Made by a program: the position numbers and the translations under genes
In this document: positions 19,781 to 50,224 of the stretch, in pieces
Layout of the letters: the number at the start of each line of letters is the position of its first letter
Position numbering within the stretch: the first letter of the stretch is position 1
The notes under the pieces: generated by a model
Seen by the model: only the letters and a program-made list of their open reading frames with translations
What the model was told of the DNA's origin: nothing
Databases searched by the model: none
Assembly: GCA_965216605.1 (NCBI GenBank)
Contig: CBDCGG010000002.1
Coordinates: 1,159,871 to 1,223,870, forward strand
Direction: 5' to 3'
DNA from: Alphaproteobacteria bacterium
GTDB lineage: Bacteria > Pseudomonadota > Alphaproteobacteria > JABAAW01
DNA: 64,000 bases

Positions 19781-21082
19781 ATGTCTCAACCCTCGACTTC
19801 GGAGATGACCTCTTTTTTTAACGATTCTCTTGCTTCTAGCGATGCGGAGATATGCGCTGCTTTGGAGGGGGAGTTCATAAGACAGCGAGATGGAGTAGAG
19901 CTGATTGCTTCCGAGAACATTGTCTCAAGGGCGGTGTTGGAGACGGCGGGATGCGTGCTCACGAACAAGTATGCCGAGGGCTATCCGGGCAGAAGGTATT
20001 ACGGCGGATGCGACCCCTCCGATGATGTCGAGCGACTGGCGATCGAGCGAGCAAAAAAATTGTTCAATTGTCCATTTGCCAACGTGCAACCGCACTCGGG
20101 CTCGCAGGCGAATCAGGCGGTCTTCTTTGCTTTGTTGCAACCCGGCGACAGCTATCTTTCGATGGCATTGGACGAGGGGGGACATTTGTCGCATGGGGCT
20201 TCCGTCAATATTTCGGGGAGGTGGTTCAAGCCTATCCATTACGGGCTTGACCCCCAAAGTCAGAGGATCGATTACGACAATCTGGAGAGGCTTGCTTCCG
20301 AGCATAAGCCAAAGTTGATTCTCGCGGGGGGATCTGCTTATCCTAGGATTATCGATTTCGAGAGGATTGCCAAAATAGCGAAATCTTGCGGGGCGTGGTT
20401 TATGGTTGATATGGCGCATATTGCCGGATTGGTAGCGGGGGGAGTGCATCCTTCGCCGATACCTCATGCGGATGTTGTCACTTCGACTACGCACAAGACT
20501 TTACGCTCGGCGAGGGGGGGATTGATTCTCTCTCACGACGAGGCGATTGGAAAAAAAATTAATAGTGCTATCTTTCCTGGGTTACAGGGTGGTCCTTTGA
20601 TGCATTTAGTTGCGGCTAAGGCGGTGGGTTTGGGGGAGGCGTTGCGTCCTTCGTTTGGGGAGTATGCTAGGGCTATTGTTGCGAATGCGCAAGTTTTAGC
20701 GGAGGTATTAATCAAGGGGGGATATGGGTTAGTTTCGGGGGGTACGGACACGCATTTAGTATTGGTAGATTTACGAGAAAAAGGAGTTACGGGGAGGGAT
20801 AGTGAGGTTTCGTTGGAGAGGGCGGGGATTACTTGTAATAAGAATGGGGTACCTGCGGATGATGCTCCTCCTATGGTTACTTCGGGGATTAGGCTGGGTG
20901 TTCCTGCGGTGACGACGCGGGGTATGGGTGAGGATGAGGTTAGATTAATTGGGGAGTTGATTGTGCGGATTTTGGATGGATTGGCTGTGAGTGGGATTGA
21001 GGGTAACACAAAAATTGAAACAGAAGTAAAAGGAGAGATAATGGAGTTGTGTAAGAGATTTCCGTTGTATCCGTTTGGGTGA
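19781..21082 (+). CDS. glyA: Serine hydroxymethyltransferase
   Basis: SHMT signatures (…[37 protein letters not shown]…, PLP-Lys region [13 protein letters not shown]). The 3' half is strongly C-depleted on the coding strand. Confidence 0.9.
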
Positions 21083-21182
21083 TATAACAGGATAGGAATG
21101 TTGGAAATGTTGGGTATGTTGTCCGCGTTCGTTCGCGCTTCCTTACGGGCTCTCTCGCGTGGACAACGGATGGTGCGTGCTT

Positions 21183-21358
21183 ACTACACCCTCGCAAGCC
21201 AAAGGCTTGCGTATGGGGGGTGTGGGGGGACGAAGTTCCCCCGCAAAAACGCGCCGCGAGCGGGCGCGTTAGCGCCTTCTACGCGCGTAGCGCGTAGCCT
21301 CTTAATACTTAAAAGCGCGTTTCGCAGAAACGCGCAAGCAGCCTTGCGGTTTTACGAT
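21183..21358. repeat. Dispersed modular palindromic repeat, copy R1 (modules B+C, partial)
   Basis: ggggggtgtggggggacgaagttcccccgcaaaa...gcgccttctacgcgcgtagcgcgtagcctctta shared with at least 8 other loci. Confidence 0.75.
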
Positions 21359-21415
21359 GGTAAGAAACTTTGGTTTACATCATCGACTTGGGGAGGGTGG
21401 TGTTTTGCGGTTCTT

Positions 21416-22582
21416 TTGTTGGCAGGGGTTGTAATAATAGCAATTGTTTATCTTTCTTTAATTCCTAAAGATGCCGACACCATTAAGTACTTAGAACTTT
21501 ATGCGGTGATTGTCATTGGACTTATGTCTCTTTATATTGCAGGGTCGAGCTTTTGGGCAAAACAAGGCAGCGCGTTTTTTGTGGAATATCAAACAGCAAA
21601 GGATATGAATGTTGTTGACTTGTTTACATCTTCTAATATATTAGAAGATGCTATTGGCAATCCTGCAAACTCTACCATGCCTTATGTAAAAAGAATCTAC
21701 ATACGCAATGAAAAAAACAAACACGAGGCAATTAAAAGAATTTTATTGCAATTGCCAAACGAACAGACTCTTGTTTTAAAAGAATATAAAAAAGCCGACG
21801 CTCTTCTTATAAAGCCCTATGAAGCCAAGGTATTAAAATTAAATGCGGTAACATTTTATTTTAAGGAATATGACTTGACTCATGTAGGTAGAGGAAACTT
21901 TTTTTTTGATGATAATTTTGTGTATACTATTAAGGATGAAGAAATTCTTCGGAGCGGAAAAATTATTGTCGAAACAGCGCAAGGGCAGTCCTGTATTAAA
22001 AATAATAACAAGCCAATTTCATTTTGCAGCGAAAAGAATTTATTAAAACCAAGTAGATCTTTTTTTGGCATAACTTCCAGCGAACAAGAATTGACTTTTG
22101 GTTTTGATGTTATTTGTTCGCTAGAACTTTTAATGAAAAAAAATTTTGCTGACGATAAAATTTTTAATGACAGCATGCAAAAACAAATTTCTGAATATCC
22201 AAAAATAGCTGAAATGTTTTATAGGAGAGAAGGAGAATTGGCAATTCAAATAGTAATAAATTTATATAATAATATATCCTTATCATACTTTTTCCAAGCC
22301 CACAAAAAAAAATACACCTTACCTGTGCATGCAAATATAAAGAAAGAATTTTATGAGGCGTATAAAAAACATAAATTTTTTCCATTGCCAGCGGTGTTTG
22401 AAAAATCAAAAACCCAAAAAAACCGTATGTCTTTTTTTAATTTTTATTCTTTCTGTGATTCATGGGCAGAAAAAAAATGGGGAAAAAATAAAAGTAAAAT
22501 TTATAATTTTCCACAAGGATATTGCAACCAATTTGCTGTTTGCCAAAAAGAAACAAAAATCATCGACGACTTAAAACCTTAG
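21416..22582 (+). CDS. Hypothetical membrane-anchored protein on low-GC islet (island a); start uncertain
   Basis: About 30% GC over about 1.15 kb against a roughly 62% background. N-terminal TM helix (CFAVLLLAGVVIIAIVYLSLIP) and a second helix, then an about 330-aa K/N/F-rich globular part with no recognisable domain. The six-frame ORF start at 21098 runs through repeat R1 and is rejected; a TTG or internal ATG start is likely. Confidence 0.4.
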   Translation: MLAGVVIIAIVYLSLIPKDADTIKYLELYAVIVIGLMSLYIAGSSFWAKQGSAFFVEYQTAKDMNVVDLFTSSNILEDAIGNPANSTMPYVKRIYIRNEKNKHEAIKRILLQLPNEQTLVLKEYKKADALLIKPYEAKVLKLNAVTFYFKEYDLTHVGRGNFFFDDNFVYTIKDEEILRSGKIIVETAQGQSCIKNNNKPISFCSEKNLLKPSRSFFGITSSEQELTFGFDVICSLELLMKKNFADDKIFNDSMQKQISEYPKIAEMFYRREGELAIQIVINLYNNISLSYFFQAHKKKYTLPVHANIKKEFYEAYKKHKFFPLPAVFEKSKTQKNRMSFFNFYSFCDSWAEKKWGKNKSKIYNFPQGYCNQFAVCQKETKIIDDLKP

Positions 22583-22810
22583 CTCCTCGTCGTGTTGCGA
22601 GTCAGCTTGCGCACGGCAAGCCGTGCGCTTTTGAATAAGAGGCTACGCACTTCGCTTCGCTCGTGCGTAGATAAAGCGCTTACGCGCTCGCTCGCAGCGG
22701 GCTTTTTGCGGGGGGACTGCGTCCCCCCACGCCCCCCATGCGCAAAACTCACTTCGCCCAAAACTCATCTTAAGGCTCGCTCGTCTTGCGTTCTCCCGTC
22801 AATAATAAAA
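22583..22810. repeat. Dispersed modular repeat, copy R2 (inverted orientation; modules C+B)
   Basis: agtcagcttgcgcacggcaagccgtgcgcttttgaataagaggctacgca... ...ggggggactgcgtccccccacgcccccc, the reverse complement of the R1/R3 modules. Confidence 0.75.
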
Positions 22811-22845
22811 CGCCCCTTCTCTGCGTAAAGTGCTACAATCCCCCC

Positions 22846-24054
22846 ATGTCCTCCTCCTCCCAAATATCCCCCGCCGCACAGCACAAGCTCGACACAAGAA
22901 TGATGCACTCCGCAATCTCCCTCGCACGCTCCGCACAAGGCTCAACCTTCCCAAATCCACCCATAGCCTGCATAATCGCCCATTCCGAAACTATCATCGC
23001 CTTCGCAACAACAGCACCCTCAGGAAGACCCCACGCCGAAACTCAAGCCCTGAAAATAGCCGCCGCAGCAGCCAAAGGAGCAACCCTCTACACAACCTTG
23101 GAGCCCTGCACCCACACCAATAAACACAATACTCCCCCCTGCTGCATATCTATCGCCTCCTCAAAAATCTCCCGCGTCTGCTACCCACTACAAGACCCAG
23201 ACCCCCGAACAAACGGAACATGTAAAAAAATACTGGAATCTAACAATATCGAAGTTACAGAAAATCTCTGCACAAAAGAAGCCACTCAACAACTCTTACC
23301 CTATCTGAAACGAACCCAGAAAAATCTCCCCTTCCTAACACTCAAACTCGCCGCATCCATAGACGGAAAAATCTCCGCATCCTCAAATCTATACCCCAAC
23401 AAACAAACCCACATCAGCAGCGACAAAGCACGCATCTACCGAAACTCCCTCCTCAGACAATTCGATGCCATCCTCATCGGAGCGCAAACAATGCGCTCAG
23501 ATAATCCTAAACTCCTGCTCGACGATAACTTCCACACACAACAGAAACATCCCTTCGCGCCCATCAGGATAATCCTCGACGGAGGGCTAACCATCCCCCT
23601 AGAAAGCAAGCTCGTCCAAACCCTCGACCAAGCCCCCCTCTGGATACTCACCCGCGCCTCCGAAGAAGCTAGCGACAAAGGTACAGCCCTCAAAAATAGC
23701 GGCGTCCGACTAATTCCCATACCAGCCCTCTCCAAACAAGGCGGAGGCGTACGACTATCCCTGCCCCACGCCCTCAGCACGCTCGCCCAAGAAGGTATAG
23801 CATCCATACTCTGCGAAGGTGGAGCAAAACTCGCTCACGCACTCCTACATGAAAATTTGCACGAAAATTTAGTAGACCAACTCATCCTCTTCTCCGCTCC
23901 CCACGCGCTAGGCGCACAAGGACGCTCCATGTTTGAAGGTACCGACGCGCAACGCATCAATTTCCAACTAGAAGAATCTATCTCCTTAGGAGACGACGAA
24001 GTGCGCACCTTCCGTATCCAAAAAAATAACTATATAAAAAATAATCATGTTTAG
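22846..24054 (+). CDS. ribD: Bifunctional riboflavin biosynthesis protein RibD (deaminase/reductase)
   Basis: Deaminase motifs HAETQAL and TLEPCTHTNKHNTPPC, then a reductase domain. The coding strand is extremely G-depleted (C/A-rich). Confidence 0.8.
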   Translation: MSSSSQISPAAQHKLDTRMMHSAISLARSAQGSTFPNPPIACIIAHSETIIAFATTAPSGRPHAETQALKIAAAAAKGATLYTTLEPCTHTNKHNTPPCCISIASSKISRVCYPLQDPDPRTNGTCKKILESNNIEVTENLCTKEATQQLLPYLKRTQKNLPFLTLKLAASIDGKISASSNLYPNKQTHISSDKARIYRNSLLRQFDAILIGAQTMRSDNPKLLLDDNFHTQQKHPFAPIRIILDGGLTIPLESKLVQTLDQAPLWILTRASEEASDKGTALKNSGVRLIPIPALSKQGGGVRLSLPHALSTLAQEGIASILCEGGAKLAHALLHENLHENLVDQLILFSAPHALGAQGRSMFEGTDAQRINFQLEESISLGDDEVRTFRIQKNNYIKNNHV

Positions 24055-24697
24055 CGGTATCATAACCCATACAGGAAAAGTCGTAGCACTCAACACAAGC
24101 CGCCCAAAAACCGAGCAGGCAGACTGGCAACTCACCATAGAAACCGACATGGAAGCCTCGCGTTGTGCCATCGGAGCATCGATCGCCTGCAACGGAATCT
24201 GCCTCACCGTCGCACATCACGAATCCTCCGAAAATAACTCGCGCTTCGTAGTACAAGCAGGGACAACAACACGCGAACGCACAACGCTCGGCGAGTGGGA
24301 TGTCGGACGCTCGGTGAACTTGGAGAGCTCGCTCCGCCTCGGCGATCCGCTAGACGGACATCTCGTCACAGGGCATGTCGATGCCTGCGTCAGCGTAGCG
24401 AAGCGTATCGAACGCGAAAACGAAATCGGGTTAGATTTTCTGTTCCCCTCCATTAAAGACGAGTCAGCTCAACACCTACACGCCTGCTGCGCAGTGAGAG
24501 GATCGATCACAATAGACGGCGTGTCGCTGACAATCTCATCTTGCAGCGACAAAGTTTTCTCGGTCGCCGTCATCCCCTACACAGCAGAGCATACAACGCT
24601 AGGCAAACTACGCGTAGGAGAGCGCGTCAATTTGGAGATAGATATTCTCGCGCGCTATGTAGCTCGAAGATTAGAAGTGTTAGGAAAAGTATCATGA
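24047..24697 (+). CDS. ribE: Riboflavin synthase
   Basis: MFSGIITHTGKV N-terminus and duplicated lumazine-binding half-domains. Confidence 0.8.
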   Translation: MFSGIITHTGKVVALNTSRPKTEQADWQLTIETDMEASRCAIGASIACNGICLTVAHHESSENNSRFVVQAGTTTRERTTLGEWDVGRSVNLESSLRLGDPLDGHLVTGHVDACVSVAKRIERENEIGLDFLFPSIKDESAQHLHACCAVRGSITIDGVSLTISSCSDKVFSVAVIPYTAEHTTLGKLRVGERVNLEIDILARYVARRLEVLGKVS

Positions 24698-25224
24698 CAA
24701 AGCGTAACGGTGGTGACAGATTCGGTGGAGAATTAGGTGGAGGCTCTCTTGCTGTGAAGGGGAGGATTGTCGTTCTTCGCGCGCCCTATTATGCAGATGT
24801 AGTAGAGATGTTAAGGACAGGAGTAGAGCGCGCAGCTTCGGCGTATAGCTCTGTTTCTTTAGGTAAGGCAGAGGAGGATATCGTCGTCGGCGGAGCGTTA
24901 GAACTGCCGTTGGCGATGTCGTTGTTTGTGGAGGGATGTGAGGAGGATGCTCGCACCGCGATAAAGAGAGGAGAGTTAGGTTTCGTAGCCTTGGGTTGTA
25001 TAGTTAGAGGGGAGACCGAGCATTTCTCGCTTGTCAGCGAGCAGTGTTATCGAGGGTTGCAGGAGGTTTCGTTGCGTTGTTCTGCTCCTTTGGGGGTTGG
25101 AGTTTTGGCTTGCAATTCGTTGGAGCAGGCTGGGGCAAGGGCGGATATACAGGGAGAGATAGATTGTGGCGGGCAGGCGTTGCGTGCTTGTTGTGGATTG
25201 ATGTCGTTACGGCAGGGTTGTTGA
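24694..25224 (+). CDS. ribH: 6,7-dimethyl-8-ribityllumazine synthase
   Basis: …GRIVVLRAPYYADVVEMLRTG… and …GFVALGCIVRGETEHFSLVSEQ… typical of RibH. Start is ATG at 24694 with an AGGAAAAG RBS. Confidence 0.75.
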   Translation: MTKRNGGDRFGGELGGGSLAVKGRIVVLRAPYYADVVEMLRTGVERAASAYSSVSLGKAEEDIVVGGALELPLAMSLFVEGCEEDARTAIKRGELGFVALGCIVRGETEHFSLVSEQCYRGLQEVSLRCSAPLGVGVLACNSLEQAGARADIQGEIDCGGQALRACCGLMSLRQGC

Positions 25225-25225
25225 G

Positions 25226-25768
25226 ATGTCGAAGGTATCGAAGGCGGAGGCAGAGTTGATGGTACGGCGGGCTACTCGGTTAGCTGCGTTGCAGATATTG
25301 TATGGTCAGCAGTTCAAGGGGGAAACTTTGTATCAGACAGATCCTTATTGGGATGAGGATGAGGGGAGGGATGGAGACAATATTAATAAGTTTGAGAACA
25401 CGCGGAGTGATAGGGTATTTTTGGCGAAGTTGTTATCTTGTGCTAGAACGAATCGGAGAGTTTTGCAGGGGTGGTTATCGGATCGTGTTGTTGGGAGGTC
25501 TTGGGAGAATGTAGATTTGTTGTTGCGGTTGATTATGTGGCTGGGTGTTGCGGAGATGGTATTGGTAAGTATAGACGAGGCTGGCAAAGGAATGGGAACA
25601 GGCAAAGTTAGATTAGGGAGATTAGCGGGAGAGTATTGTGGGATGACTAGTTTATTTTATGATGATGCGGGGGTTATAGGGTTAGTTAATGGTGTGTTGG
25701 ATGGGGCTGCTAAAAGTGATTTGGGGAAGGTCTTGCGGGGGGAGGGTATTGCGAAGGGGGAGGGCTAG
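25226..25768 (+). CDS. nusB: Transcription antitermination factor NusB
   Basis: …ATRLAALQILYGQQFKGE… NusB fold. Conserved ribH-nusB-thiL synteny. Confidence 0.8.
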   Translation: MSKVSKAEAELMVRRATRLAALQILYGQQFKGETLYQTDPYWDEDEGRDGDNINKFENTRSDRVFLAKLLSCARTNRRVLQGWLSDRVVGRSWENVDLLLRLIMWLGVAEMVLVSIDEAGKGMGTGKVRLGRLAGEYCGMTSLFYDDAGVIGLVNGVLDGAAKSDLGKVLRGEGIAKGEG

Positions 25769-25774
25769 TTGTGA

Positions 25775-26045
25775 TAGGTTTTTTGTCTGTTGCGCTCGCG
25801 CTTGTGCTTTTTAAAGGCACGCGCTCGCGCAACAGATTTGCTTTGTATGATGACGGATGCAAAACATGCGCACGCGAAGCGTGCGCGGGGGGTGTGGGGG
25901 GATAAATTCCCCCCACGAAGACCCCGCGTCAGCGGGGGGAATTTGTCCCCTCGCGCACGCAGTGCGCTTTCTACACACTTTGCGCGAAGCGCAAAGTGTG
26001 TAGCCTCTTATTCAAAAGCGCACGGCTTGCCGTGCGCAAGCTGAC
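25775..26045. repeat. Dispersed modular repeat, copy R3 (modules A+B+C)
   Basis: gtctgttgcgctcgcgcttgtgctttttaaaggcacgcgctcgcgcaacaga... ggggggtgtggggggataaattccccccacgaagaccccgcgtcagcgg ...gtgtagcctcttattcaaaagcgcacggcttgccgtgcgcaagctgactc. Confidence 0.8.
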
Positions 26046-26138
26046 TCTTAACACGGTACAGCGTCTTTAATTTTGCCTAGAAAATAGAGACAAAAAAAAA
26101 TACGCAAGCACACACAAATCTGCTATACTCTCCCCATC

Positions 26139-27140
26139 GTGTCTTTCTCCGAATCTACCCTCATCGCACAATATATCGCTCCACATATATCATCTCCGCT
26201 CGCAAAAAATTTGCTCGACGATACCGCACTCATACCCCCGCCTCCAGCAAACTGCTCCTACGCCGTCTCAACCGACACAATCGTCGAACATATCCATACC
26301 CTCCCCTCAACATCTCCCCAAGCCTACGCACAAAAAATTCTCGCAGCAAACCTCTCCGACCTCGCAGCCCAAGCCGCCAAACCCCTCGCTATACTCCTCT
26401 CCCTCACAATCCCCAAACAAAAAGCCGAACGCTTCATTAAAGAATTCTCCCCAGCCTTCGCATTAGGTTGCAAACAAAACAACCTCCTCTGGCTCGGAGG
26501 AGACCTCACAACAACACCCCACAATATCTGCATCTCCGCTACCATCATCGGAGCATCACAAAAAAATATCGACCCCAAAAGAGCCAACGCCAAAAATAAC
26601 GACATCATCCTCATAACAGGAGAACTCGGCGAAGCAGCACTCGGACTCAAAGTCCTCCAAGAAACAGCCCCGCAACAACGCACCCGCGCTCAACGAAAAG
26701 CAGCCCTTCGCTACAACAACCCCACCGCCCGATGGAAAGAAGCCCTGCTAATCGCTCCCTACGCGAACGCCATGATGGATATCTCCGACGGACTGGTAGC
26801 CGACCTCACAAAACTCTGCTCCGCAGCACAACTCGGAGCAGACCTCTGTCTTCCCTCAATCCCCATCGCGAAAACCCTCATGGAAACACTTCCCGCACAC
26901 CAAGCCCTCGCCATCGCTATCTCTAGCGGCGAAGACTTCGAACTGCTCGTCACTGCCTCCCCCGAAAACTACGAAATCCTGCAAAAAAAATTAGCCAGCA
27001 AAACAGCGACCCAAACATCTCTTTTGTCCCTCACCCGCATCGGAACGCTCAACAACAACAAGGGCAAAATCCGCTACCTCGATGCCTCCCAAAAAGAAAC
27101 ACCTCCCCCCAAACACAAAGGCTACGACCACTTCGCCTGA
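26139..27140 (+). CDS. thiL: Thiamine-monophosphate kinase
   Basis: AIR-synthase-related/ThiL architecture (…DDTALIPPP…, …LWLGGDLTTTP…, …NDIILITGELGEAALG…). Follows nusB. Coding strand is G-depleted. Confidence 0.7.
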   Translation: MSFSESTLIAQYIAPHISSPLAKNLLDDTALIPPPPANCSYAVSTDTIVEHIHTLPSTSPQAYAQKILAANLSDLAAQAAKPLAILLSLTIPKQKAERFIKEFSPAFALGCKQNNLLWLGGDLTTTPHNICISATIIGASQKNIDPKRANAKNNDIILITGELGEAALGLKVLQETAPQQRTRAQRKAALRYNNPTARWKEALLIAPYANAMMDISDGLVADLTKLCSAAQLGADLCLPSIPIAKTLMETLPAHQALAIAISSGEDFELLVTASPENYEILQKKLASKTATQTSLLSLTRIGTLNNNKGKIRYLDASQKETPPPKHKGYDHFA

Positions 27141-27266
27141 ATTATTACACGCTCCCACGCATCCCCCCTTCGCTCTCTTTGCGTTTTGCTTCGCCCCTCT
27201 CGCAAGCCTCCCCTTTCTTGCCTCCCGCTCCCTTTTGCCTCAAGCCCTCTCGGTCGCTCGCCTGTG

Positions 27267-29205: not shown

Positions 29206-29280
29206 GGGGGTTCCTCTTGGGGTGGGGTGAGGGGGGGTGTGGAGGCTTTTCTTTTAGCACAGAGAAGGGGGAGGAGTCTA

Positions 29281-29712
29281 TATTATTGACGCACACGGCA
29301 AGCCGTGCGCTATGCATGCTCGCGCAACAGACACGAGCTTTTTGTATTAAACGGCAAAACGCAAGACGAGCGAGCCGTAGGCGAAGTGAGTTTTGCGCAT
29401 GGGGGGTGTGGGGGGACGAAGTTCCCCCGCAAAAGACCCCGCGTCAGCGGAGCGCCATAGCACACGGCTTGCCGTGTGCGTCCATGATATGTTGGTGCGC
29501 CTTCTACGCGCGTAACCCGAAGGGTTACGCGCGTAGCCTCTTATTCAAAAGCGCGAGGCTTGCCTCGCGCAATACTGACTTTTAACATGGTAAGGCGATT
29601 CGAGTTTTCCTAGCCCTAGCGACAAAAAAAATCGCGCGCAGTGCGCCTCTTATTCAAAAGCGCGAGGCTTTGCCTCGCGCAAACTGACTCCTACCATGGC
29701 AGAGCAGCTTTG
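29281..29712. repeat. Dispersed modular repeat, copy R4 (composite: A'+B+C+C)
   Basis: Contains gcacggcaagccgtgcgc, ggggggtgtggggggacgaagttcccccgcaaaagaccccgcgtcagcgg, and two copies of cctcttattcaaaagcgcgaggcttgcctcgcgcaa(t/a)actgact. Confidence 0.8.
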
Positions 29713-29730
29713 TTTTGCGGAGAACAGAGA

Positions 29731-32121
29731 CTATTTGTTTCCGCTTTTAAGAATAGCATCATAGAAAGTCTTGTCATGGTATTTTATCATTTTAAAAATT
29801 ATCTTTAAATTTTTCTGTAAATGCAAAAAACTTTCTGATGTTTTGGAGTGGCTGTCAGGATGAATGCGATCATTTAAATTCAGCACAATTGTTTCTACAG
29901 AAAATATTTCTGGATTTTTTTTCCAAAGACTACTTAAACTATTTACAAGAGATTTACCTTCTGCTTTCCAAATGTTCACATACATTTCTAGGAATGTCCT
30001 GACCATGTTGGGAGCGCTAATGCATTCGTCTTCGTTTATTACTTCAGCTTCCATAATGTCATGAAGTTTTTTAAACAAATAAGGAAACAAGGCAGAGCTA
30101 TTTTCTATTACCTTTGGCATTTTAATAAGTTTAGTTTTTAAGTTTACATCTTTTTCAAGCATATACAAAGAACATCCGTATTTTTTTGAGTCTTTGTTTA
30201 TTGGAGGTTGTTTAACCCAATAAATAACTCTTTCGAGAAAGTTTAAATCGTGTGTTAAGATAAAAACTTGCCTTGCTGAAGAAATTTTTTTTCTCATAGT
30301 AATAAACATACCATAAAAATTAATAGTATCAAGGCTGGACACAGGATCGTCGATAATAATTCTTGTGTTAGGAATTATAAATTTATTGCCTTGTTCGTCT
30401 GTTCTTTCAAGTGAAAAAAGAAAATACAAAAATACAATTACATTAATTTCCCCTTCACTTAAAGAATCCACACTGGCTTTTTTCTTATTTCTAAATATTT
30501 CATAGCCAGAAATTTTGCCGCCAGCTGCTTTCAGCTGCAACACGTTGTATCCGAAAAAATTATTTAATTCAGTATTAATTTTATTTGAAAATTCTAATAT
30601 ATTATACATTTTTTTTTCATTTTCAACAATACAACTTTCCATTTTTTCCATGGCAACATCAATTGTCTTCAATGGGCTGGTTTCCGAAAAATTATCTTCG
30701 CAAAGAAAGTTTATTTCTTCTATGTTTATACGATTTTTATAAAAATCTTTCATTCCCTCAGCGATTTTATGAGAAATTAGTTTTTTTCCTGCAATATTCA
30801 TTTTTTGTTCAATTTTAAGCTGGTTGTCATTGAATATTAAAATCATTCTATTGATTTTTTCTAATATTTCTTTCAGATACGTTTTGCTTTTATTTAATGT
30901 TTCAATAATAATAGGCGCGACATTTTTCTTTATGTATATTTGATTTTTCTTTGATTGTATTTTTTCTTTAAGATTGTCGATAGCATTCAAATAACCACTT
31001 ATTTTTTCTGAAAAATCAAGCTGAATTTTTTCTATTTCTACTTTTTGCCCTGAATCAAAAAAAGTAAAGTTATCTATATGAATTTTATAATGCGTAATTT
31101 TTTCTTTTTGCTGCTCAAGGCATGTAGAGTCATTTTCTAATTTTTGTATCAAAGCATTTGTGTCTGGATTGAAATGTTTTTTTAATTTATCAATTAATTG
31201 GGATGATATTGTATTTTCGCAAAATTCACATTTCTCTTTTTTGTCAGCGTGAATTTCCAATCCTAATTTTACCCAATTAGATACTGTGCCTTCCATATCC
31301 ATTACCCTTTTGTCGACTTCGCCTTCAGGTATAGAAGACAAGTGTTCTGCCATTTCGTCGTAGTTAATTTCTTCTGGATAGTAAATTTTATACATAGGGT
31401 TTTCTGATTTTCTGTCGATATCTTGCTCAAAATTAATATATTGTGTGTTGTCTAATATTTCGTTTTCTATTTTATCTTTAAAGCTATTTAAATCTCTATT
31501 CACTTTAGATTTTTCATAATTTGCAACATCAAGATTTTTTCCGTATTGCGTGCCTCTGAAAAATGTTTTAATGTTGACGGCTATGTTTTTCATGCACTCT
31601 TCGTAAATATATATTCGGATTTGCTTTAATTTTGCAATTTTTACTTTCAAGCTTCTATTAGCATCTAATAATTTTATTTGTGGCTCTCCTAGCATAATTT
31701 TTTTTATATTCTTCTCCTGAAGATTTTCTGGAAAAAAATTATCTTTAACATACTCTCTATCAAATAAAGCGATATGCTCATCTTCCGTTTCGTTTTTGTC
31801 GATTTCAAATTCAACTGAAAGTCCCATGTCTTTGTAATAATTTTCTTGCTCGTCATTTTTGTAAGAAAGCAAGCGTGAAAAAATTGTTTTTCCAACCCCG
31901 TTTAATCCAAAAATCACGTTGCGGTCTGAAAAATCAAAATTTTTACATGCGTTTTCGTTCCAAGAGAAGTCCCTAAAAACCCATTCAGTATCAGGAGCAC
32001 TACTGTATTTGCTGATAACTCCTTCATCGAGAGTAATTTTTTTTATCTTCCTCAACATTTTCTTTCTCCTCGCAAAGCGTTTTGCTTTCTTAGAAATAGC
32101 ACAAGTTTTTTCTCCTGTCAA
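29731..32121 (-). CDS. RloC-like anticodon nuclease / AAA_13-type ABC ATPase with Zn-hook coiled coil (low-GC island b)
   Basis: 796 aa at about 30% GC. Walker A NVIFGLNGVGKT near the N-terminus, a long coiled-coil insertion with CxxC (KEKCEFCENT) zinc-hook, Walker B/D-loop IIIDDPVSSLD, H-loop ILTHD, then an about 150-aa C-terminal domain (PrrC/RloC-like ACNase region). Confidence 0.6.
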   Translation of the reverse strand: MTGEKTCAISKKAKRFARRKKMLRKIKKITLDEGVISKYSSAPDTEWVFRDFSWNENACKNFDFSDRNVIFGLNGVGKTIFSRLLSYKNDEQENYYKDMGLSVEFEIDKNETEDEHIALFDREYVKDNFFPENLQEKNIKKIMLGEPQIKLLDANRSLKVKIAKLKQIRIYIYEECMKNIAVNIKTFFRGTQYGKNLDVANYEKSKVNRDLNSFKDKIENEILDNTQYINFEQDIDRKSENPMYKIYYPEEINYDEMAEHLSSIPEGEVDKRVMDMEGTVSNWVKLGLEIHADKKEKCEFCENTISSQLIDKLKKHFNPDTNALIQKLENDSTCLEQQKEKITHYKIHIDNFTFFDSGQKVEIEKIQLDFSEKISGYLNAIDNLKEKIQSKKNQIYIKKNVAPIIIETLNKSKTYLKEILEKINRMILIFNDNQLKIEQKMNIAGKKLISHKIAEGMKDFYKNRINIEEINFLCEDNFSETSPLKTIDVAMEKMESCIVENEKKMYNILEFSNKINTELNNFFGYNVLQLKAAGGKISGYEIFRNKKKASVDSLSEGEINVIVFLYFLFSLERTDEQGNKFIIPNTRIIIDDPVSSLDTINFYGMFITMRKKISSARQVFILTHDLNFLERVIYWVKQPPINKDSKKYGCSLYMLEKDVNLKTKLIKMPKVIENSSALFPYLFKKLHDIMEAEVINEDECISAPNMVRTFLEMYVNIWKAEGKSLVNSLSSLWKKNPEIFSVETIVLNLNDRIHPDSHSKTSESFLHLQKNLKIIFKMIKYHDKTFYDAILKSGNK

Positions 32122-32226
32122 CCCTTTTCTTCATCCGCCGTTTTCCGCCGCCTGTGTCGCCACCGCCGCCGCAACCCTCAAGAAAAAAACTTGCCTTGCT
32201 TCAAGAATCTTGCTAGAATGAGCCCC

Positions 32227-34417: not shown

Positions 34418-34430
34418 GTATGTTTGTGAG

Positions 34431-34560
34431 GGGGTAGGGGAGTGGCGTGTCTGTTCGGCTTGCTTGCGCTACCTTGCGGGCGCGCTACGCAGGTTTGATG
34501 AAAAGTAAGCGCAGCCGGACACGGACTTCGTCGTGCATCGGCAGTTATATCCGTCAATAG
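34431..34560. repeat. Partial copy of dispersed repeat (R4b)
   Basis: gcttgcttgcgctaccttgcgggcgcgctacgcag is shared with 39640-39680. Confidence 0.5.
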
Positions 34561-34703
34561 AAAAAGCGCGTGTCTGCCTTTGCGGAGATGTGCGGGGACG
34601 AGCCGTCTTGCAATTTCTGTGCCGGCTCGCCCCACCAATCTAGCGTAGTTCAGTTCAGCTCAGAAATATCTCCTGCGTGTAGCAGCGCATCTCCCTGCTG
34701 CTA

Positions 34704-36365
34704 TCAGCGGTTGAGGTATTCCCGTTCTCGTCTGTCTCTCGCATTTGGCGCAGGGAAATCTTCGTGCAAGGTCTTCACCATGCCATAGACCATGAAGACT
34801 AACATGACAGCAAGCGGCACCCCCGCGATGATCGAGGCTGTTTGCAGAGCAGACAATCCTCCGATCCGCAAGAGTATGCCCGCAACAACGCCAGAGGTGA
34901 CACCCCAGAACAATCGAAACCTTATCGGAGGACTTTCGTCTCCCATCGAAAGCATGGTGGACATCACCAACGTGCCAGAATCCGACGAGGTCACAAACCA
35001 AGATACCAAAAGAAGGGTGATGAGAATCGTGATCGGCGTCACCAAGCTTTGATACCCAAAACCCGCGACCGTTTGAAACACGCCAGAGGCGTAGTCCGCA
35101 TTGACAGCCTCAGCAACGCCCGCGTTGTTGAGAAGATCAACCCCCGCCGCCGCTCCGCCAAAGACACCCATCCACACGATGACAACAGAAGTAGGCACCA
35201 GCAGGACATAAAGGCAGAACTCTCGAATGGTGCGTCCCTTAGAAATGCGGGCGATAAACATCCCGACGAAGGGACACCACGCAATCCACCACCCCCAGTA
35301 GAAGATCGTCCACCAACTCTGCCAATCGTTGCCGGGCTCGGTATTGACCCAAAAGCCCATGGGGATGACATTCCACAGGTAATCGCCCGCGCTAGAGACC
35401 ACCATGCCCAAAATGAACCCCGTAGGTCCTAGCACGAGGAAGATAATAAGCAGACCAATGCTGAGCCAGACATTCCACTCACTCAGAATGCGAACGCCTT
35501 TGTTGACCCCAGAGACAGCAGAGGCAGTGCCTAATGCCGTGATGATCGCTATAAGTACCAGCTGGTTTGTGATGGTGTTGGGCAGCCAGCCGAGATTGCC
35601 CAACCCGTTGCCGATGGCGACGACTCCAAGTCCCAGCGATGTGGCGAGACCGAAAATCGTGCCAAAGACGCAGAGCAGATCGACGATATGCCCCCAGACA
35701 CCGTATATCCTGTCTTTCAACACAGGATACAAGGCGGAGCGCAGAGAAAGCGGCAGTCCCTTGCGGTAAGAAAAGTAGGCGAGAGAAAGCCCGACCAAAA
35801 CATAAAGCGCCCAACCATGGAAGCCCCAGTGAAAGATGGTGATGCGAATGGCGATTATCGCCGCATCCACGCTGTTCGCGGCTACCCCTTCATGCGCCAT
35901 AAAGGGATTGTCTTGAATGTGATACATCGGCTCTGCGACACCCCAATAGATGAGCCCAGAAGCGAGCCCCGCGCTGAAAAGCATACACACCCACGAGAAA
36001 GTCGAGAAATCGGGTTTCTCATTGTCCTTGCCCAATTTGACATGCCCGAAGCGGCTGAACATAAGCCAAAGGACAAAAAACAGCACTCCAGAGACGACCG
36101 CGACATAAAACCAGTCCAGCGTGGAGCTGATGAAACTCTTGCCGAGCTCAAAGAATTTGCCCGAGTAGTCCACATCCCAGACCGTGAAGGTCACGAACCC
36201 AATGATCATGAGCGTCGAGGCGATGCCCATAAAGGTGTTCGCTCCTGCGAATAATCCCGATTTCGCAACCAGATTATTGGGGTTGCTACGAAGTTTTTTA
36301 GCCATGATTGTGTTTTCTCCTTTGCTTTTTCCGTGGCAAGATCCAATTTCTTGGCTCAATAGCAC
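34704..36365 (-). CDS. BCCT-family betaine/carnitine/choline transporter
   Basis: 553 aa with 12 TM segments and BCCT signature regions (…WTIFYWGWWIAWCPFVGMFIARISKGRTIREF…). Confidence 0.85.
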   Translation of the reverse strand: MLLSQEIGSCHGKSKGENTIMAKKLRSNPNNLVAKSGLFAGANTFMGIASTLMIIGFVTFTVWDVDYSGKFFELGKSFISSTLDWFYVAVVSGVLFFVLWLMFSRFGHVKLGKDNEKPDFSTFSWVCMLFSAGLASGLIYWGVAEPMYHIQDNPFMAHEGVAANSVDAAIIAIRITIFHWGFHGWALYVLVGLSLAYFSYRKGLPLSLRSALYPVLKDRIYGVWGHIVDLLCVFGTIFGLATSLGLGVVAIGNGLGNLGWLPNTITNQLVLIAIITALGTASAVSGVNKGVRILSEWNVWLSIGLLIIFLVLGPTGFILGMVVSSAGDYLWNVIPMGFWVNTEPGNDWQSWWTIFYWGWWIAWCPFVGMFIARISKGRTIREFCLYVLLVPTSVVIVWMGVFGGAAAGVDLLNNAGVAEAVNADYASGVFQTVAGFGYQSLVTPITILITLLLVSWFVTSSDSGTLVMSTMLSMGDESPPIRFRLFWGVTSGVVAGILLRIGGLSALQTASIIAGVPLAVMLVFMVYGMVKTLHEDFPAPNARDRREREYLNR

Positions 36366-36447
36366 ACGCCCCCTGCCTATTTCCAGCGTAGAACAGAAAA
36401 ATATCAGCTGTCAACAGCAGATCGCAGATACTTGTAATTTTTTTTAA

Positions 36448-36720
36448 GCGCTTAAGAGGCGCACTGTGTGCGTTCTTTTCTCCTTTAGGTGAGCGGGAAA
36501 CAGGATCGCCGTGCCGTGTTACGAGTCAGCTTGCGCATTGCTTCGCAATGCGCTTTTGAATAAAAGGCTACGCCCTTCGCGCTTCGCGCGAAGGGCGTAG
36601 ATAAAGCGCGCTTGCGTGCGCGTGTTTTGCGCCCGTCATCGTACAAAGCCCGTTACAATTTTTGTCGTTGCGCAGCGCGCCCGTAAGGAAGCGCAAGCAA
36701 GCAACGACAAAAAAACACAA
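36448..36720. repeat. Dispersed modular repeat, copy R5 (inverted orientation; modules C+A-like)
   Basis: agtcagcttgcgcattgcttcgcaatgcgcttttgaataaaaggctacgcccttcgcgcttcgcgcgaagggcgtag... tgttttgcgcccgtcatcgtacaaagcccg. Confidence 0.75.
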
Positions 36721-36826
36721 GCGCGAACGCAACAGACACACCACGCCCCCGTAAAGTTATCCCCGAAGTTATTCCTTTTCTATTAAGCCCCTCATCCTCC
36801 CATATTTTTTCCTCTATACTGCGCCC

Positions 36827-38380
36827 ATGTCCGAATCAGCCGCCATCCCCCATACGCCCCCCATCTCCCAGCTTCCCACAGCCAATGGAGAAACACCCCC
36901 GCCCGTATCCTCCGCTGCGACTGCCCTCGCCGAAACGACCTCGCCGTTGCAACTCGAAGAAGTCGAACAAGCCCTGCTAGGTGCCATGCTCCGCAATAAC
37001 CGAGTCTACGACGACCTCGCCGATAAACTCTCTGACGAAGACTTTCATCACCCCGCCCATCAAATCATCTACAAAACGCTCGGCGAACAAGCACTCCGCG
37101 GACAACAAGCAAATGCCCTAACCCTCGCCTATCTGCTCTCCGACGACGAAGCCCTTTCCGCACAAGGCGGCGCAGAATATCTCTCCTACCTAGAAAACGC
37201 ACTCCTCCCCAGCGTCCCGAAAGACTACGCCCGAATCCTCCGCGATCTCCGCCTCAGACGAAACCTCGTCGATATAGGACAAACAACATCCGCTAAAGCA
37301 CAAAAAGTCGAACCCCAAGTGCAAGCCGATGCGCTCATCGAAGAAGCCGAAGAAAAACTCTTCAATCTAGCTACCATCGGAGAACAAGAACAAATCCTAC
37401 ACGATATCGGATCAGCATCCGAAAACGCTCGGCAAATCGCAGAAAGAGCCATGGAGCGAAAACGAGACCTCGTCGGAATCAATACAGGATTTACCAAACT
37501 CAATCAAATGCTAGGAGGACTCCACGACTCAGATCTCGTCATATTAGCTGGCAGACCTTCGATGGGTAAAACCGCGCTCGGACTAACTATCGCCTACAAC
37601 GCCGCCCAACAAGTCGTGCGAGATCCCGAAGAGCCCGGACGCACACTCTTCTTCTCGTTGGAAATGTCGGCAGAACAACTCGCAACAAGGCTCATCGCCG
37701 CGCACTCAGGTATATCCAACGATAGGATCCGCCGCGGAGAAATACGACGCGACGACTTCGAAAAAATATCCGAAGCATCTCGCTACATGGCAGAACTGCC
37801 CCTATACATCGACGATAGCGCAGCGCTCAGCGTCAGCGCGCTCCGCCAACGCGCGCGTCGAGCGAAAAGGCAGAAAAATATCGATCTCATCGTCGTAGAC
37901 TATCTACAATTATTACATCTGGCGCACGGAGAGTATCGTGAGAATCGTGTTCAAGAAGTCTCCAGTATAACGCGCGCCCTCAAGGCGTTGGCGAAGGACT
38001 TAAATATACCTGTGCTTGTGCTCTCGCAGCTCTCGCGTGAGGTGGAGAAGCGCGAACCTCCGCGTCCGCAGCTCTCCGACTTGCGCGATTCGGGCGCGAT
38101 CGAGCAGGATGCCGATGTCGTCATGTTTGTCTATCGAGAAGCATACTACCTCGCGCGCAAAGCTCCCGAACAGCGCGAGGAAGAAAGTATCGAGCAGTTT
38201 CAAGCTCGCCACAAACGCTACCTAGATCTGTTAGAGCCAAAGCGCAACAAGGCAGAGCTGTTGATTTCCAAACAGCGACACGGACCCGTCGGCACGGTGG
38301 AGCTCTTCTTCGATGGAAATCTCGCGCGCTTTGCTAACTTGGAGACCGCAGAGCGAGAAGAGAACGAAAGCGGCTTTTGA
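36827..38380 (+). CDS. dnaB: Replicative DNA helicase DnaB
   Basis: DnaB N-terminal domain, Walker A GRPSMGKTAL, Walker B DLIVVDYLQLL. 517 aa. The 5' about 1 kb is G-depleted. Confidence 0.9.
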   Translation: MSESAAIPHTPPISQLPTANGETPPPVSSAATALAETTSPLQLEEVEQALLGAMLRNNRVYDDLADKLSDEDFHHPAHQIIYKTLGEQALRGQQANALTLAYLLSDDEALSAQGGAEYLSYLENALLPSVPKDYARILRDLRLRRNLVDIGQTTSAKAQKVEPQVQADALIEEAEEKLFNLATIGEQEQILHDIGSASENARQIAERAMERKRDLVGINTGFTKLNQMLGGLHDSDLVILAGRPSMGKTALGLTIAYNAAQQVVRDPEEPGRTLFFSLEMSAEQLATRLIAAHSGISNDRIRRGEIRRDDFEKISEASRYMAELPLYIDDSAALSVSALRQRARRAKRQKNIDLIVVDYLQLLHLAHGEYRENRVQEVSSITRALKALAKDLNIPVLVLSQLSREVEKREPPRPQLSDLRDSGAIEQDADVVMFVYREAYYLARKAPEQREEESIEQFQARHKRYLDLLEPKRNKAELLISKQRHGPVGTVELFFDGNLARFANLETAEREENESGF

Positions 38381-40110: not shown

Positions 40111-40121
40111 TTTTTTAAAAA

Positions 40122-41775: not shown

Positions 41776-41807
41776 TCCCCATCCCCTCTTGTGTTAGGTT
41801 GCGTTTT

Positions 41808-48791: not shown

Positions 48792-48843
48792 TTGCTTGTG
48801 CTTTTGCGTTTTTTGAGAGGGGGGTAGTTTATGTTTGTTTGCC

Positions 48844-50112: not shown

Positions 50113-50224
50113 GAGTTGAAGCCCAAATAAAATACGACCAATAACTAATTCACGCCAAAAGTAGACTTTTCTAGCGGTTTGTCAATAAAAAAATACGCTT
50201 TTATACAATTTTGCTAGAAATCAG

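Follow-up and report, generated by a model that had tools for sequence, protein, structure and literature searches.

The neighbouring genes nusB and thiL of a sponge-associated alphaproteobacterium lie on the same strand, 370 bp apart, and have opposite GC skews (+0.62 and -0.45). We consider it probable (at roughly 0.6) that this flip is one case of a lineage-wide, site-anchored mutational asymmetry that arises from chronic single-strandedness combined with purifying selection. About 1.3 kb on each side of certain intergenic hotspots rich in hairpins has been stripped of nearly all C on one strand, to a degree otherwise mitochondrial, and the essential genes nusB, thiL, dnaB and ligA have been rewritten there and are still intact. 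The window, that is, the whole stretch of DNA analysed, comprises 64,000 nt (assembly GCA_965216605.1, contig CBDCGG010000002.1, positions 1,159,871 to 1,223,870; Alphaproteobacteria bacterium, Pseudomonadota; Alphaproteobacteria; JABAAW01).

Opposite strand composition of nusB and thiL

The flip between the two genes lies at the site that we call S2, with the following features:

24450-25768, left flank of S2 (from composition and Pfam): end of ribE, ribH, nusB
24694-25224, + strand, ribH (Pfam DMRL_synthase)
25226-25768, + strand, nusB (Pfam NusB)
25769-26138, spacer R3, a cluster of GC-rich perfect hairpins
25868-25886, 25894-25916, 25971-26003 and 26018-26037, the perfect hairpins of R3
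26064-27266, right flank of S2: thiL leader, thiL and 126 bp of downstream non-coding DNA
26139-27140, + strand, thiL (Pfam AIRS and AIRS_C)

Taken together, ribH and nusB (24694-25768, + strand) consist of A.216, C.122, G.382 and T.280 (GC skew +0.52), with C as low as.092 in nusB alone, and thiL consists of A.306, C.380, G.146 and T.168. The skew flip described in the initial annotation is therefore confirmed. It is sharpest at third codon positions, which are A.17, C.04, G.47, T.32 in nusB and A.33, C.51, G.06, T.10 in thiL (chi-square 209, 3 d.f., p = 4.7e-45), compared with about A.23, C.35, G.28, T.14 in unskewed genes of the window. The codon-table comparison that the annotation proposed separates the two genes in third-position C versus G (Fisher's test, p = 2.5e-42). 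Its near-absence of G in thiL holds, and so does its near-absence of C in nusB; in ribH, the depletion of C is only moderate (third-position C.13). The Leu and Gly codon choices that it pointed out are also borne out: Leu is TTG or TTA in 22 of 23 cases in nusB and CTC in 31 of 44 in thiL, and Gly is GGG in 12 of 23 and 0 of 13 cases, respectively. The effective number of codons is 39.9 in nusB and 34.9 in thiL, versus 45-52 in unskewed genes. Since second codon positions are shifted too (C.15 and G.27 in nusB; C.35 and G.09 in thiL), the amino-acid composition of both proteins has shifted. The NusB of the window matches its Pfam model with only 36.5 bits.

Towards the spacer, C falls and G and T rise on the + strand of the left flank, with the skew going from 0 near 24300 to +0.74 at 25501-25750. 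On the other side, the + strand is G-poor and rich in C and A, with skews of -0.59 at 26101-26400 and -0.50 in the non-coding tail. R3 itself is balanced (skew -0.01). Instead of the 270-bp repeat initially described, we found a spacer of 370 bp with a repeat share of about 285 bp (25779-26063). Its hairpin at 25971-26003 has a 15-bp CTAC...GTAG stem and a GAA loop, and a long imperfect hairpin (25786-25836) lies directly past the nusB stop codon. Folded as ssDNA, R3 has a predicted minimum free energy of -104 kcal/mol (z = -8.5). Its repeat modules (families D3, D5 and I1-I7) were found again by blastn at other flip sites. The gene order ribH-nusB-thiL stands as annotated; given the terminator-like hairpins between them, nusB and thiL may not form a single transcription unit.

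Flip sites across the window

The flip is not peculiar to these three genes. Within 45 kb of the window, at least eight sites (S1-S8) show a change of this kind, from + to -, and the earlier reading of mutation under purifying selection, which is supported, was in this respect too narrow. An absolute skew of at least 0.4 was reached in 31 of 256 bins (250 bp, whole window), none of them in the first 18 kb; in an E. coli control (50 kb from the origin region, 250-bp bins) the maximum was 0.28. Each site is a cluster of GC-rich, REP-like perfect hairpins in an intergenic gap, with or without an AT-rich island of defence genes. Besides S2, these are:

S1, 21083-22785: hairpin modules 21193-21335 and 22591-22744, mutually inverted, on either side of an AT-rich ORF (about 21450-22582, no family match); flanks glyA (19781-21082), skew up to +0.60, and ribD (22786-24054), skew -0.5
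S3, 29206-32190: hairpin cluster 29394-29730, then an AT-rich island with an AAA_13 / PDC-S06 defence-type ATPase gene (29731-32121, - strand); flanks 5' end of an aldehyde dehydrogenase gene, +0.41, and 5' end of an enolase-superfamily gene, -0.38
S4, 34418-36826: cargo an unskewed BCCT transporter gene (34704-36365, - strand), hairpin cluster 36507-36738; flanks a 3-hydroxyisobutyrate-dehydrogenase-like gene, +0.5, and dnaB (36827-38380), -0.42
S5, 39612-41807: hairpin cluster 39750-40114 with a near-complete R3 copy, then an AT-rich island with a T5orf172 / PDC-S57 protein gene (40795-41775, - strand); flanks alr (38436-39611), up to +0.76, and a small gene (41808-42158), -0.45
S6, 48792-50493: AT-rich island with a gene for an N6/N4 DNA methyltransferase fused to a T5orf172 domain (48844-50112, - strand), hairpin cluster 50252-50407; flanks a short-chain dehydrogenase gene, +0.72, and a thioesterase gene (50494-51045, - strand), + strand skew -0.63
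S7, 53103-53451, the weakest site: hairpin with a 10-bp stem (53242-53267), no cargo; skew +0.38 to -0.28
S8, 60349-60508: 160-bp spacer with a D5-like hairpin (60448-60469), no cargo; flanks a bactofilin gene, +0.34, and the 3' end of ligA (60509-62497, - strand), + strand skew -0.66

The association with hairpins is strong. The eight sites occupy 18.6% of the window and contain 25 of its 28 perfect hairpins whose stems are 8 bp or longer. Flips occur at all nine intergenic regions with such stems and at one of the twelve without (Fisher's test, p = 3.4e-5); the hairpin-free boundaries at 12166-12878, 17826-18194 and 27141-27266, for instance, have no flip. The hairpins form recurrent families with compensatory variants. 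Seven of them (six inside sites) start with CTAC and end with GTAG, a tag that lies within the stem, and the motif CGTCAGCG recurs in another hairpin module. No comparable flank effect was seen at GC-rich hairpins of E. coli (mean step 0.03), so a lineage-specific factor is needed.

A T5orf172 nuclease-like domain is present in two of the five cargo genes of the window; as for deaminase domains, the window yielded none besides the one that RibD normally carries. The scan of window proteins gave neither a match to a RAYT (REP-associated tyrosine transposase) nor an integrase, and the cargo genes stand singly, scattered between core genes, unlike those of an integron.

Polarity and gradient of the skew

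At every site the + strand is depleted of C in the left flank and of G in the right flank; on either side, the strand that enters the site in the 5' to 3' direction has little C and A and much G and T. Across the two flanks of the eight sites, skew on this inward-running strand is +0.49 at 0-200 bp and falls monotonically and roughly linearly to 0 by about 1.3 kb. It amounts to +0.62 to +0.73 at third codon positions and +0.47 in adjacent non-coding DNA, and at first and second positions goes from +0.41 down to 0. Distance from the site may serve as a stand-in for exposure, with which the effect would then be graded. The footprint is symmetric about the sites: with gene orientation matched, left and right flanks have values of.61 versus.58 and.40 versus.42.

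The pattern is independent of coding sense. Whether the affected strand is coding or template, its third positions converge on about A.14, C.06-.12, G.45-.49, T.26-.35, from baselines of A.23, C.35, G.28, T.14 (coding) and A.14, C.28, G.35, T.23 (template). Over all positions, the affected strand changes by -.13 in C, -.02 in A, +.10 in G and +.06 in T. The direction of these changes is the keto-rich pattern of strands that stay single-stranded for longer. As the gain of G exceeds that of T, plain C to T change is insufficient; A to G change, a fixation bias towards G/C-ending codons, or both are needed.

Retention of C on the affected strand varies with context (CC.31, AC.43, TC.60, GC.64), differences that codon structure could explain. 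Runs of G (31.5 versus 9.5 per kb) and G-quadruplex motifs (35 versus 0) are enriched on this strand. No k-mer was enriched in the flanks beyond composition (maximum z 3.8 among thousands tested), which argues against selection for a motif. The mutational origin that had been proposed from the sequence is supported by this result, by the excess at third positions, by the skew of non-coding DNA and by the convergence irrespective of sense.

Island DNA beside the hairpin clusters is barely skewed, and far flanks are still skewed with 1-2.4 kb of island between them and the hairpins. It follows that the skew is far older than the islands, unless the initiating lesion lies elsewhere than at the hairpins.

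Conservation in related genomes

The flips persist across species, in five or six sponge-symbiont genomes. The order ribD-ribE-ribH-nusB-thiL, with the same skews and intact ORFs, was found in the relatives L001, L002, L041, L042 and L058, and flips occur at the same junctions in these five and in L061, with different spacer content. The same core-gene junctions carry differing defence cargo of one to a few genes, including R-M systems, AAA_13 ATPase, T5orf172 proteins and methyltransferase-nuclease fusions; the cargo at the S4 junction of L061 is unlike that of the window, and one cargo gene of L001 is a methyltransferase with a putative HNH nuclease motif (read by eye). To judge by the genes that are split in L061, G-run-rich flanks of this kind seem liable to homopolymer errors when genomes are assembled from long reads.

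The window and L042 share the same base at only 0.45-0.47 of four-fold sites, with a chance expectation of about 0.35-0.38. Synonymous sites are thus near saturation and the skew is nevertheless kept, so it must have been maintained continuously. L042, with an almost empty spacer, has the weakest skew (third-position G in thiL.13, versus.05-.08 in the others), yet it flips with a spacer of about 100 bp and a single 7-bp hairpin. The more distant L062 provides a natural control: it has the same gene order and lacks GC-rich hairpins, islands and flips.

Between the window and L001, dN/dS is 0.17-0.32. Together with synteny and the intact ORFs in relatives, this agrees with the initial view of native, intact genes under purifying selection. 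In the same comparison, dS is not higher in the most skewed genes (.16-.24 versus.24-.37). The compositional shift is not simply one of C to T and G to A, and among replacements inferred against outgroups the transition type predicted earlier is not the main class. Polarising the window/L001 changes by parsimony revealed no current excess of C to T on the depleted strand; the abundant base is the one now being lost (G to A, 19 changes, in nusB; C to A, 17, and C to T, 11, in thiL). This result fits saturation together with the known bias of parsimony, and is not positive evidence.

Proposed mechanism and alternatives

The data show the pattern itself, with its polarity and gradient, its indifference to coding sense, its tie to the hairpin sites and its persistence across species; from these we infer single-strandedness, deamination, and breaks or gaps as the cause. 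The sites are intergenic hotspots, marked by GC-rich REP-like hairpin clusters, at which changing defence-gene cargo also gathers. The DNA on either side would repeatedly become single-stranded, always on the strand with its 3' end towards the site. Deamination of this ssDNA would turn C into U and A into hypoxanthine, which are read as T and G, respectively, and the exposed strand would drift towards G+T and away from C+A along tracts of variable length, up to about 1.3 kb. With proteins preserved by purifying selection, the change would approach completion at synonymous sites and stay partial where it replaces amino acids. The polarity would be compatible with 5' to 3' strand removal outward from a break or nick at the hairpin, followed by repair from the sister chromosome, and equally with gaps downstream of a polymerase blocked at hairpins.

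A more specific version, which we put forward tentatively and think rather doubtful, is that breaks or gaps arise chronically at the hairpin clusters, possibly started by an enzyme, and that the clusters both capture and swap defence cassettes and direct hypermutation of one polarity at about 1.3 kb of core genes on each side, strongly enough to bias the composition of essential proteins as in mitochondria. This would be a fixed, evolutionary counterpart of kataegis or fragile-site mutagenesis undescribed in bacteria, for which a dedicated nuclease or deaminase or a lost repair function may be needed. If true, small DNA structures would set the local mutation spectrum of a bacterium for hundreds of sites simultaneously, strongly enough to reshape the amino-acid composition of essential proteins. 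The flanks would be a natural record of where, and on which strand, ssDNA arises in an uncultured organism, and would tie integration hotspots of defence genes to DNA fragility. As a practical warning, such genomes violate compositional stationarity for gene finders, detectors of horizontal transfer, codon-usage measures and phylogenetic models.

It is unlikely, in our view, that the skew is imposed by an enzyme, either a ssDNA-specific deaminase or a biased repair polymerase recruited when hotspots are processed, which would amount to targeted hypermutation beside cassette landing pads. Recruitment could follow when a REP-associated transposase or some other nuclease cuts the hairpins, or when nuclease-domain proteins of the islands (T5orf172 or HNH fusions) cut empty sites. 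An mtDNA-like magnitude that is absent around E. coli hairpins calls for a lineage-specific factor, the T5orf172 domains and the putative HNH fusion of L001 offer candidates, and the larger gain of G could reflect abasic-site bypass following uracil removal. However, there is no clear sequence context of the deaminase type, RibD carries the only deaminase domain of the window, and cargo varies between genomes while the skew does not.

Selection of the skew for a function, such as Rho termination of transcripts that turn C-rich and G-poor on leaving the islands, flanks that are unstructured or free of palindromic restriction and methylation sites, or Chi/KOPS-like signals, seems to us still harder to sustain. 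The polarity is the one that correctly oriented G-rich signals of the Chi or KOPS type would have if they led to a common centre, the pattern has been kept across species in spite of synonymous saturation, and the affected strand is strongly enriched in G runs and G-quadruplex motifs. Against this, no specific k-mer stands out beyond composition and essentially every synonymous site is affected, as is non-coding DNA; the altered amino acids of DnaB, LigA, NusB and ThiL would be a heavy cost for a signal, and Rho would also terminate thiL, ribD and dnaB, because their mRNAs are C-rich and G-poor.

Very little favours transcription-associated asymmetry, in which the non-template strand exposed in transcription bubbles or R-loops deaminates. 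Flanks affected on the coding strand are somewhat stronger (about.6, versus.4 for the template), with which a small additive effect is compatible, but in thiL, ribD, dnaB, the enolase-family gene and mnmA transcription leads away from the site and C is depleted on the template strand, which contradicts this explanation. Moreover, nusB and thiL share a strand and have opposite skews, hairpin-free boundaries do not flip, and thiL is still short of G at its 3' end. Ordinary replication skew, gene inversion, foreign genes and assembly artefact are extremely improbable: a terminus does show a sign change from + to -, but here there are at least eight within 45 kb, of amplitude 0.5-0.76; every relative, the flip-free L062 included, has the genes as syntenic orthologues; and the pattern recurs in no fewer than five or six assemblies that different projects made independently with different assemblers. 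These results contradict all of them.

Comparison with known systems

Site-anchored asymmetry from single-strandedness, our preferred reading, shares elements with several known systems. In replication skew, as here, the more single-stranded strand turns rich in G+T and poor in C+A, and the change from + to - marks the terminus. That skew has two switches per chromosome and an amplitude mostly below 0.1-0.2, held over a whole replichore, in contrast to the hairpin-anchored switches found here every few kb, of up to 0.76 and with a range of about 1.3 kb. In vertebrate mtDNA, G or C is reduced to about 5% at synonymous sites. The magnitude is comparable to ours, and there too C and A become rarer and T and G commoner on the exposed strand, above all at synonymous sites; in mtDNA, however, the replication mode exposes a whole strand of a small genome, whereas the tracts described here are short, on opposite strands, and at many chromosomal sites. 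The accepted cause of replication GC/AT skew is asymmetric deamination plus selection (PMC2031905, PMC6263442), and the mtDNA gradient is attributed to time spent single-stranded (PMC4182315, PMC2939890).

In kataegis, ssDNA from 5' to 3' resection of breaks is deaminated at C, giving strand-coordinated clusters, some of them bipolar (PMC3628087), and in yeast, hairpin-forming inverted repeats cause breaks and raise mutation for kilobases on both sides in a resection-dependent manner (PMC3681665). The flips resemble kataegis in their strand-coordinated changes and the strand switch at the site. Kataegis and fragile motifs concern single somatic or laboratory events, with a TpC context or the spectrum of an error-prone polymerase, unlike the fixed, near-equilibrium composition seen here across species, in which TC is kept better (.60) than CC or AC, a comparison confounded by codon structure. 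In E. coli, SbcCD is reported to cut the hairpin that a palindrome forms during replication; both ends of the resulting two-ended break are then resected, and the sister chromosome serves as template for the repair (PMC8386832, PMC4752480). Such a system would supply recurrent, symmetric 3' single-stranded tails at a fixed site, and the window has stable hairpin-forming sequence (R3, stems up to 15 bp). The SbcCD case involves long engineered palindromes, for which no compositional footprint is known to have been reported; the stems here are of 8-15 bp.

The same core junctions with different defence cargo per genome recall integration hotspots, defence islands and minimal mobile elements. To our knowledge, integration hotspots have not been described as distorting the composition of the core genes beside them. 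An integron would have an integrase, an attI site and a contiguous attC cassette array, in contrast to the single, scattered cargo of the window. REP/BIME elements are short GC-rich extragenic palindromes, clustered in both orientations, with GTAG and CGTC motifs (PMC3733652). The window hairpins are likewise intergenic, in many copies, mostly downstream of genes, with stems kept by compensatory changes and with both motifs present. A REP carries its GTAG or CGTC tag unpaired at one end, and GTAG here is part of the stem; flanking skew is undescribed for REPs; our literature search found no published description of such skew beside hairpin sites. Finally, the GC skew of R-loops places a G-rich non-template strand past the promoter, and the 5' ends of thiL, ribD and dnaB show the opposite, with a G-poor non-template strand.

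Opposite strand skew at eight sites

The initial annotation had described ribH and nusB as written almost without C on the coding strand, and thiL, which follows on the same strand, as written almost without G. Together, ribH and nusB (24694-25768, + strand) have 12% C and 38% G, whereas thiL (26139-27140), on the same strand 370 bp downstream, has 15% G and 38% C. Composition is balanced in the spacer that separates nusB from thiL. The codon choices noted for nusB and thiL were borne out by codon counts, and the third-position contrast between the two genes is very strong (chi-square 209, p = 5e-45). The near absence of C holds for nusB, with ribH being only moderately affected.

Third-codon-position composition and effective number of codons
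nusB: A.17, C.04, G.47, T.32; 39.9
thiL: A.33, C.51, G.06, T.10; 34.9
Unskewed window genes: about A.23, C.35, G.28, T.14; 45-52

First and second codon positions are also shifted, and the amino-acid composition is therefore altered. Nucleotide changes derived from amino-acid replacements relative to distant outgroups (30-45% identical, just two of them alignable for NusB) gave only a weak signal, namely loss of G in ribD and thiL. On the + strand, the 3' non-coding tail of thiL (27141-27266) consists largely of pyrimidines (C.45, T.32, A.08); on top of its G depletion, it has an AT skew of -0.60, opposite to the remaining right flank.

The flip is real, but it is not peculiar to this operon. 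A skew profile of the window in 250-bp bins revealed at least eight sites at which the + strand GC skew climbs to between +0.34 and +0.76 and then falls to between -0.28 and -0.66:

S1: 21083-22785
S2: 25769-26138 (the nusB/thiL flip)
S3: 29206-32190
S4: 34418-36826
S5: 39612-41807
S6: 48792-50493
S7: 53103-53451
S8: 60349-60508

The genes flanking these sites are core genes (glyA, ribD, nusB, thiL, dnaB, alr, ligA, the rplI operon and mnmA). For a combined profile, every one of the 16 flanks was read on the strand leading 5' to 3' into its site (the affected strand). GC skew is +0.49 at the site edge and declines near-linearly to zero by ~1.3 kb. In the pooled flanks it reaches +0.62 to +0.73 at third positions, starts at +0.41 at first and second positions, and is +0.47 in adjoining non-coding DNA. 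Overall, the affected strand shifts in composition from A.219, C.281, G.281, T.219 to A.196, C.149, G.378, T.277.

Across the flanks of all eight sites, runs of at least three G occur on the affected strand at 31.5 per kb, versus 9.5 per kb elsewhere, and overlapping G-quadruplex motifs number 35, versus none in the control sequence (24.6 kb). G runs peak in density directly at the site boundary (e.g., 25700-25768 in the window, and 1480-1548 in the related locus L041). They may be a by-product of G enrichment, or may help to keep the strand unpaired.

Hairpin clusters and cargo

The spacer of S2, R3, is a string of perfect GC-rich hairpins, one with a 15-bp CTAC...GTAG stem and a GAA loop, and its predicted fold as single-stranded DNA has an energy of -104 kcal/mol (z = -8.5). 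R3 modules are present again at S1, S3, S4, S5, S6 and S8. The window has 28 perfect hairpins whose stem is 8 bp or longer, and 25 of them fall within the eight sites, a combined 18.6% of its length. Intergenic regions with a stem of this length number nine, all of them at flips, compared with one of the 12 regions lacking such a stem (p = 3.4e-5), the exception being the far side of S4. The stems of the hairpin families are preserved through compensatory differences, as are those of REP elements (PMC3733652). Rfam and tRNA scans of the window gave no matches. A metagenome scan with a conserved 19-mer of D3, one of the repeat module families, hit 14 contigs, all chance matches of unrelated composition with no alignment past the seed.

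Five of the eight sites hold unskewed cargo:

AAA_13/PDC-S06 ATPase
40795-41775, - strand: stand-alone T5orf172/PDC-S57 protein
48844-50112, - strand: N6/N4 methyltransferase-T5orf172 fusion
ORF without family match
BCCT transporter

Single-gene AT-rich cargo repeatedly carries or combines nuclease-type domains, both in the window and at the S1 equivalent of the related locus L001, a methyltransferase (7297-8520, + strand) with an HNH-like C-terminal motif, read by eye. If these nuclease-type proteins cut empty sites, they could be a source of breaks.

Evidence for mutation pressure rather than selection on codons

The affected strand is the coding strand at the 3' ends of nusB, alr and ligA, and the template strand at the 5' ends of thiL, ribD and dnaB. 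Third-position baselines differ between coding and template strands, yet the endpoints agree: about A.14, C.06-.12, G.45-.49, T.26-.35 in both cases. Selection on codons or mRNA would not produce the same endpoint in either coding sense, whereas it is expected of a process that depends on how the strand is oriented towards the site. The skew extends to non-coding DNA, third positions are hit harder than first and second positions, a k-mer search for Chi-like and KOPS-like motifs found nothing enriched past composition, and dN/dS is 0.17-0.32. This set of results upholds two earlier proposals, that the pattern reflects mutation pressure under purifying selection and that it is not due to foreign origin. 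Relative divergence from outgroups is greater in the more skewed genes, in which the ratio of focal-outgroup to outgroup-outgroup identity is.60-.68, versus.75 in ribE.

Persistence across related genomes

A riboflavin-synthase search identified two syntenic relatives, L001 (on a 1.9-Mb MAG chromosome) and L002, and searches with ThiL and DnaB added the loci L041, L042, L058, L061 and L062. Neither the NusB of the window nor the closest DnaB relative (P0121, 97%) had an exact-sequence match on record. L042 comes from a glass-sponge MAG (Vazella pourtalesii) of order JABSOH01, which also includes 'Ca. Luteria ianthellae'. The nusB/thiL flip is found just as in the window in L001, L002, L041, L042 and L058, with varying spacer content. 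The S4 and S5 flips are seen in L061, where the cargo also differs from that of the window.

Content of the nusB/thiL spacer
Window: 370 bp, hairpins
L001: about 570 bp, same modules as the window
L002 and L058: C5 methyltransferase gene fragment
L041: intact methyltransferase gene and a second ORF
L042: about 100 bp, one small hairpin

The window and L042 have an identity of 0.45-0.47 at four-fold sites, near the ~0.36 that composition would give by chance, yet the window and the relatives compared have about the same extreme of third-position skew. The skew is therefore continuously maintained, and not an inherited relic. The weakest skew is that of L042, with its nearly empty spacer (a single observation). 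The more distant L062 (DnaB 73%, ThiL about 48%, 47% GC) has the glyA-to-rplI gene order of the window in compact form; its locus has no islands, GC-rich hairpins or flips, its skew being uniform and mildly positive, and it serves as a natural negative control.

Several other features of these loci were observed. In L041, the S3 equivalent after the aldehyde dehydrogenase gene (7197-14632) is a larger island than that of the window, with an IS1595-family transposase, a HATPase_c_3 protein, a C5 methyltransferase and a 762-aa N6/N4 methyltransferase. L061 is a long-read contig in which the dehydrogenase gene and alr, both within strongly skewed flanks rich in G runs, are split into two ORF calls apiece (5550-6573 and 11674-12808); the splits look like homopolymer frameshift errors and not real pseudogenes. 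In locus L059 (3113-5510), thiL (+ strand) is overlapped by a second AIRS-family gene (- strand), an apparent inverted duplication centred near 4260 that may reflect fold-back during assembly or a genuine palindromic rearrangement. NusB has lineage-specific C-terminal extensions: a low-complexity Glu/Lys/Asn/Arg tail in L002 (11760-11847), and in L062, where NusB (6169-6987) is 272 aa long, one that coincides with the sole strong local skew peak of the locus.

Candidate mechanisms

The strand that loses C and A and gains T and G is always the one with its 3' end towards the site. Bacterial leading strands and the vertebrate mitochondrial heavy strand, which are single-stranded for longer, change in the same direction, and the skew magnitude here matches the mitochondrial case. 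Two models yield the observed polarity, and we have moderate confidence in strand exposure of this kind as the mechanism. Strand removal could start from a break or nick at the site and proceed outward 5' to 3', leaving 3' tails, or polymerases blocked by the hairpins on either template could leave gaps downstream. Palindromes cut by SbcCD in E. coli have the geometry of the former. So do break-associated mutation clusters (PMC3628087) and inverted-repeat-induced mutagenesis in yeast (PMC3681665). The ~1.3 kb scale and near-linear fall suit variable tract ends under either model. Left and right flanks, matched for gene orientation, are equally strong (about.61 vs.58, and.40 vs.42), which leans towards a two-sided event without being decisive.

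Several other explanations were rejected. A rule based on the ends of transcription units, with G-poor 5' ends and C-poor 3' ends, is contradicted by the 3' end of thiL, which is still G-poor, and by hairpin-free boundaries, which have no flip. Transcription as the cause fails for flanks whose template strand is depleted. The skew would switch from - to +, opposite to the observed polarity, if a local replication origin were present, if rolling-circle or strand-displacement synthesis began at the element, or if the element were favoured for Okazaki priming.

The strand-exposure models also have weak points. Because G gain exceeds T gain, C to T change alone is insufficient. Polarised by parsimony against L002 as outgroup, the differences between the window and L001 reveal no ongoing C to T change on the depleted strand, and in recent changes the abundant base is being lost; the method is biased under skewed composition and with a distant outgroup. 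dS is not elevated in the most skewed genes. The parsimony and dS results fit saturation and method bias, but lend the mechanism no support. Island DNA next to the hairpins is barely skewed, which requires either that the islands are young or that the process is initiated by a lesion elsewhere. In an E. coli control, the mean skew step at GC-rich hairpins is 0.03, i.e., there is no such effect, and the account therefore lacks a lineage-specific factor, candidates being a nuclease, a deaminase and the loss of a repair function. The di- and trinucleotide context of surviving C has no clean deaminase signature. Breaks and single-stranded DNA at the sites are inferred.

The components are already known: deamination asymmetry, break-associated strand-coordinated mutation, REP-like palindromes and defence-island hotspots. 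Here they are combined in a kilobase-scale skew of mitochondrial grade, conserved across species, anchored on hairpin clusters and rewriting core genes. Literature searches, including by accession, found no description of such a combined pattern; in one paper on Alphaproteobacteria, the "extreme GC skew" amounts to about 0.03.

The type III secretion cluster

The first 18 kb of the window, which contain a type III secretion gene cluster (1397-17825), have no flips in the 250-bp profile, and no hairpin sites were found in the cluster. The AT-rich intergenic stretch before it (1006-1396; 28% GC around 1251-1500) has a weak skew step (+0.26) and no GC-rich hairpin. The cluster encodes an SseC-like translocon protein, YscJ, SctL, an EscN-type ATPase, YscO and a secretin, along with seven upstream ORFs without Pfam match; the secretin-glyA neighbourhood is also present in L062. 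Two adjacent ORFs inside the cluster (6025-6693 and 6748-7509), with no family match, are tandem paralogues containing direct repeats (6173-6687 and 6983-7500) that are 80-88% identical. They could be duplicated effector or chaperone genes.
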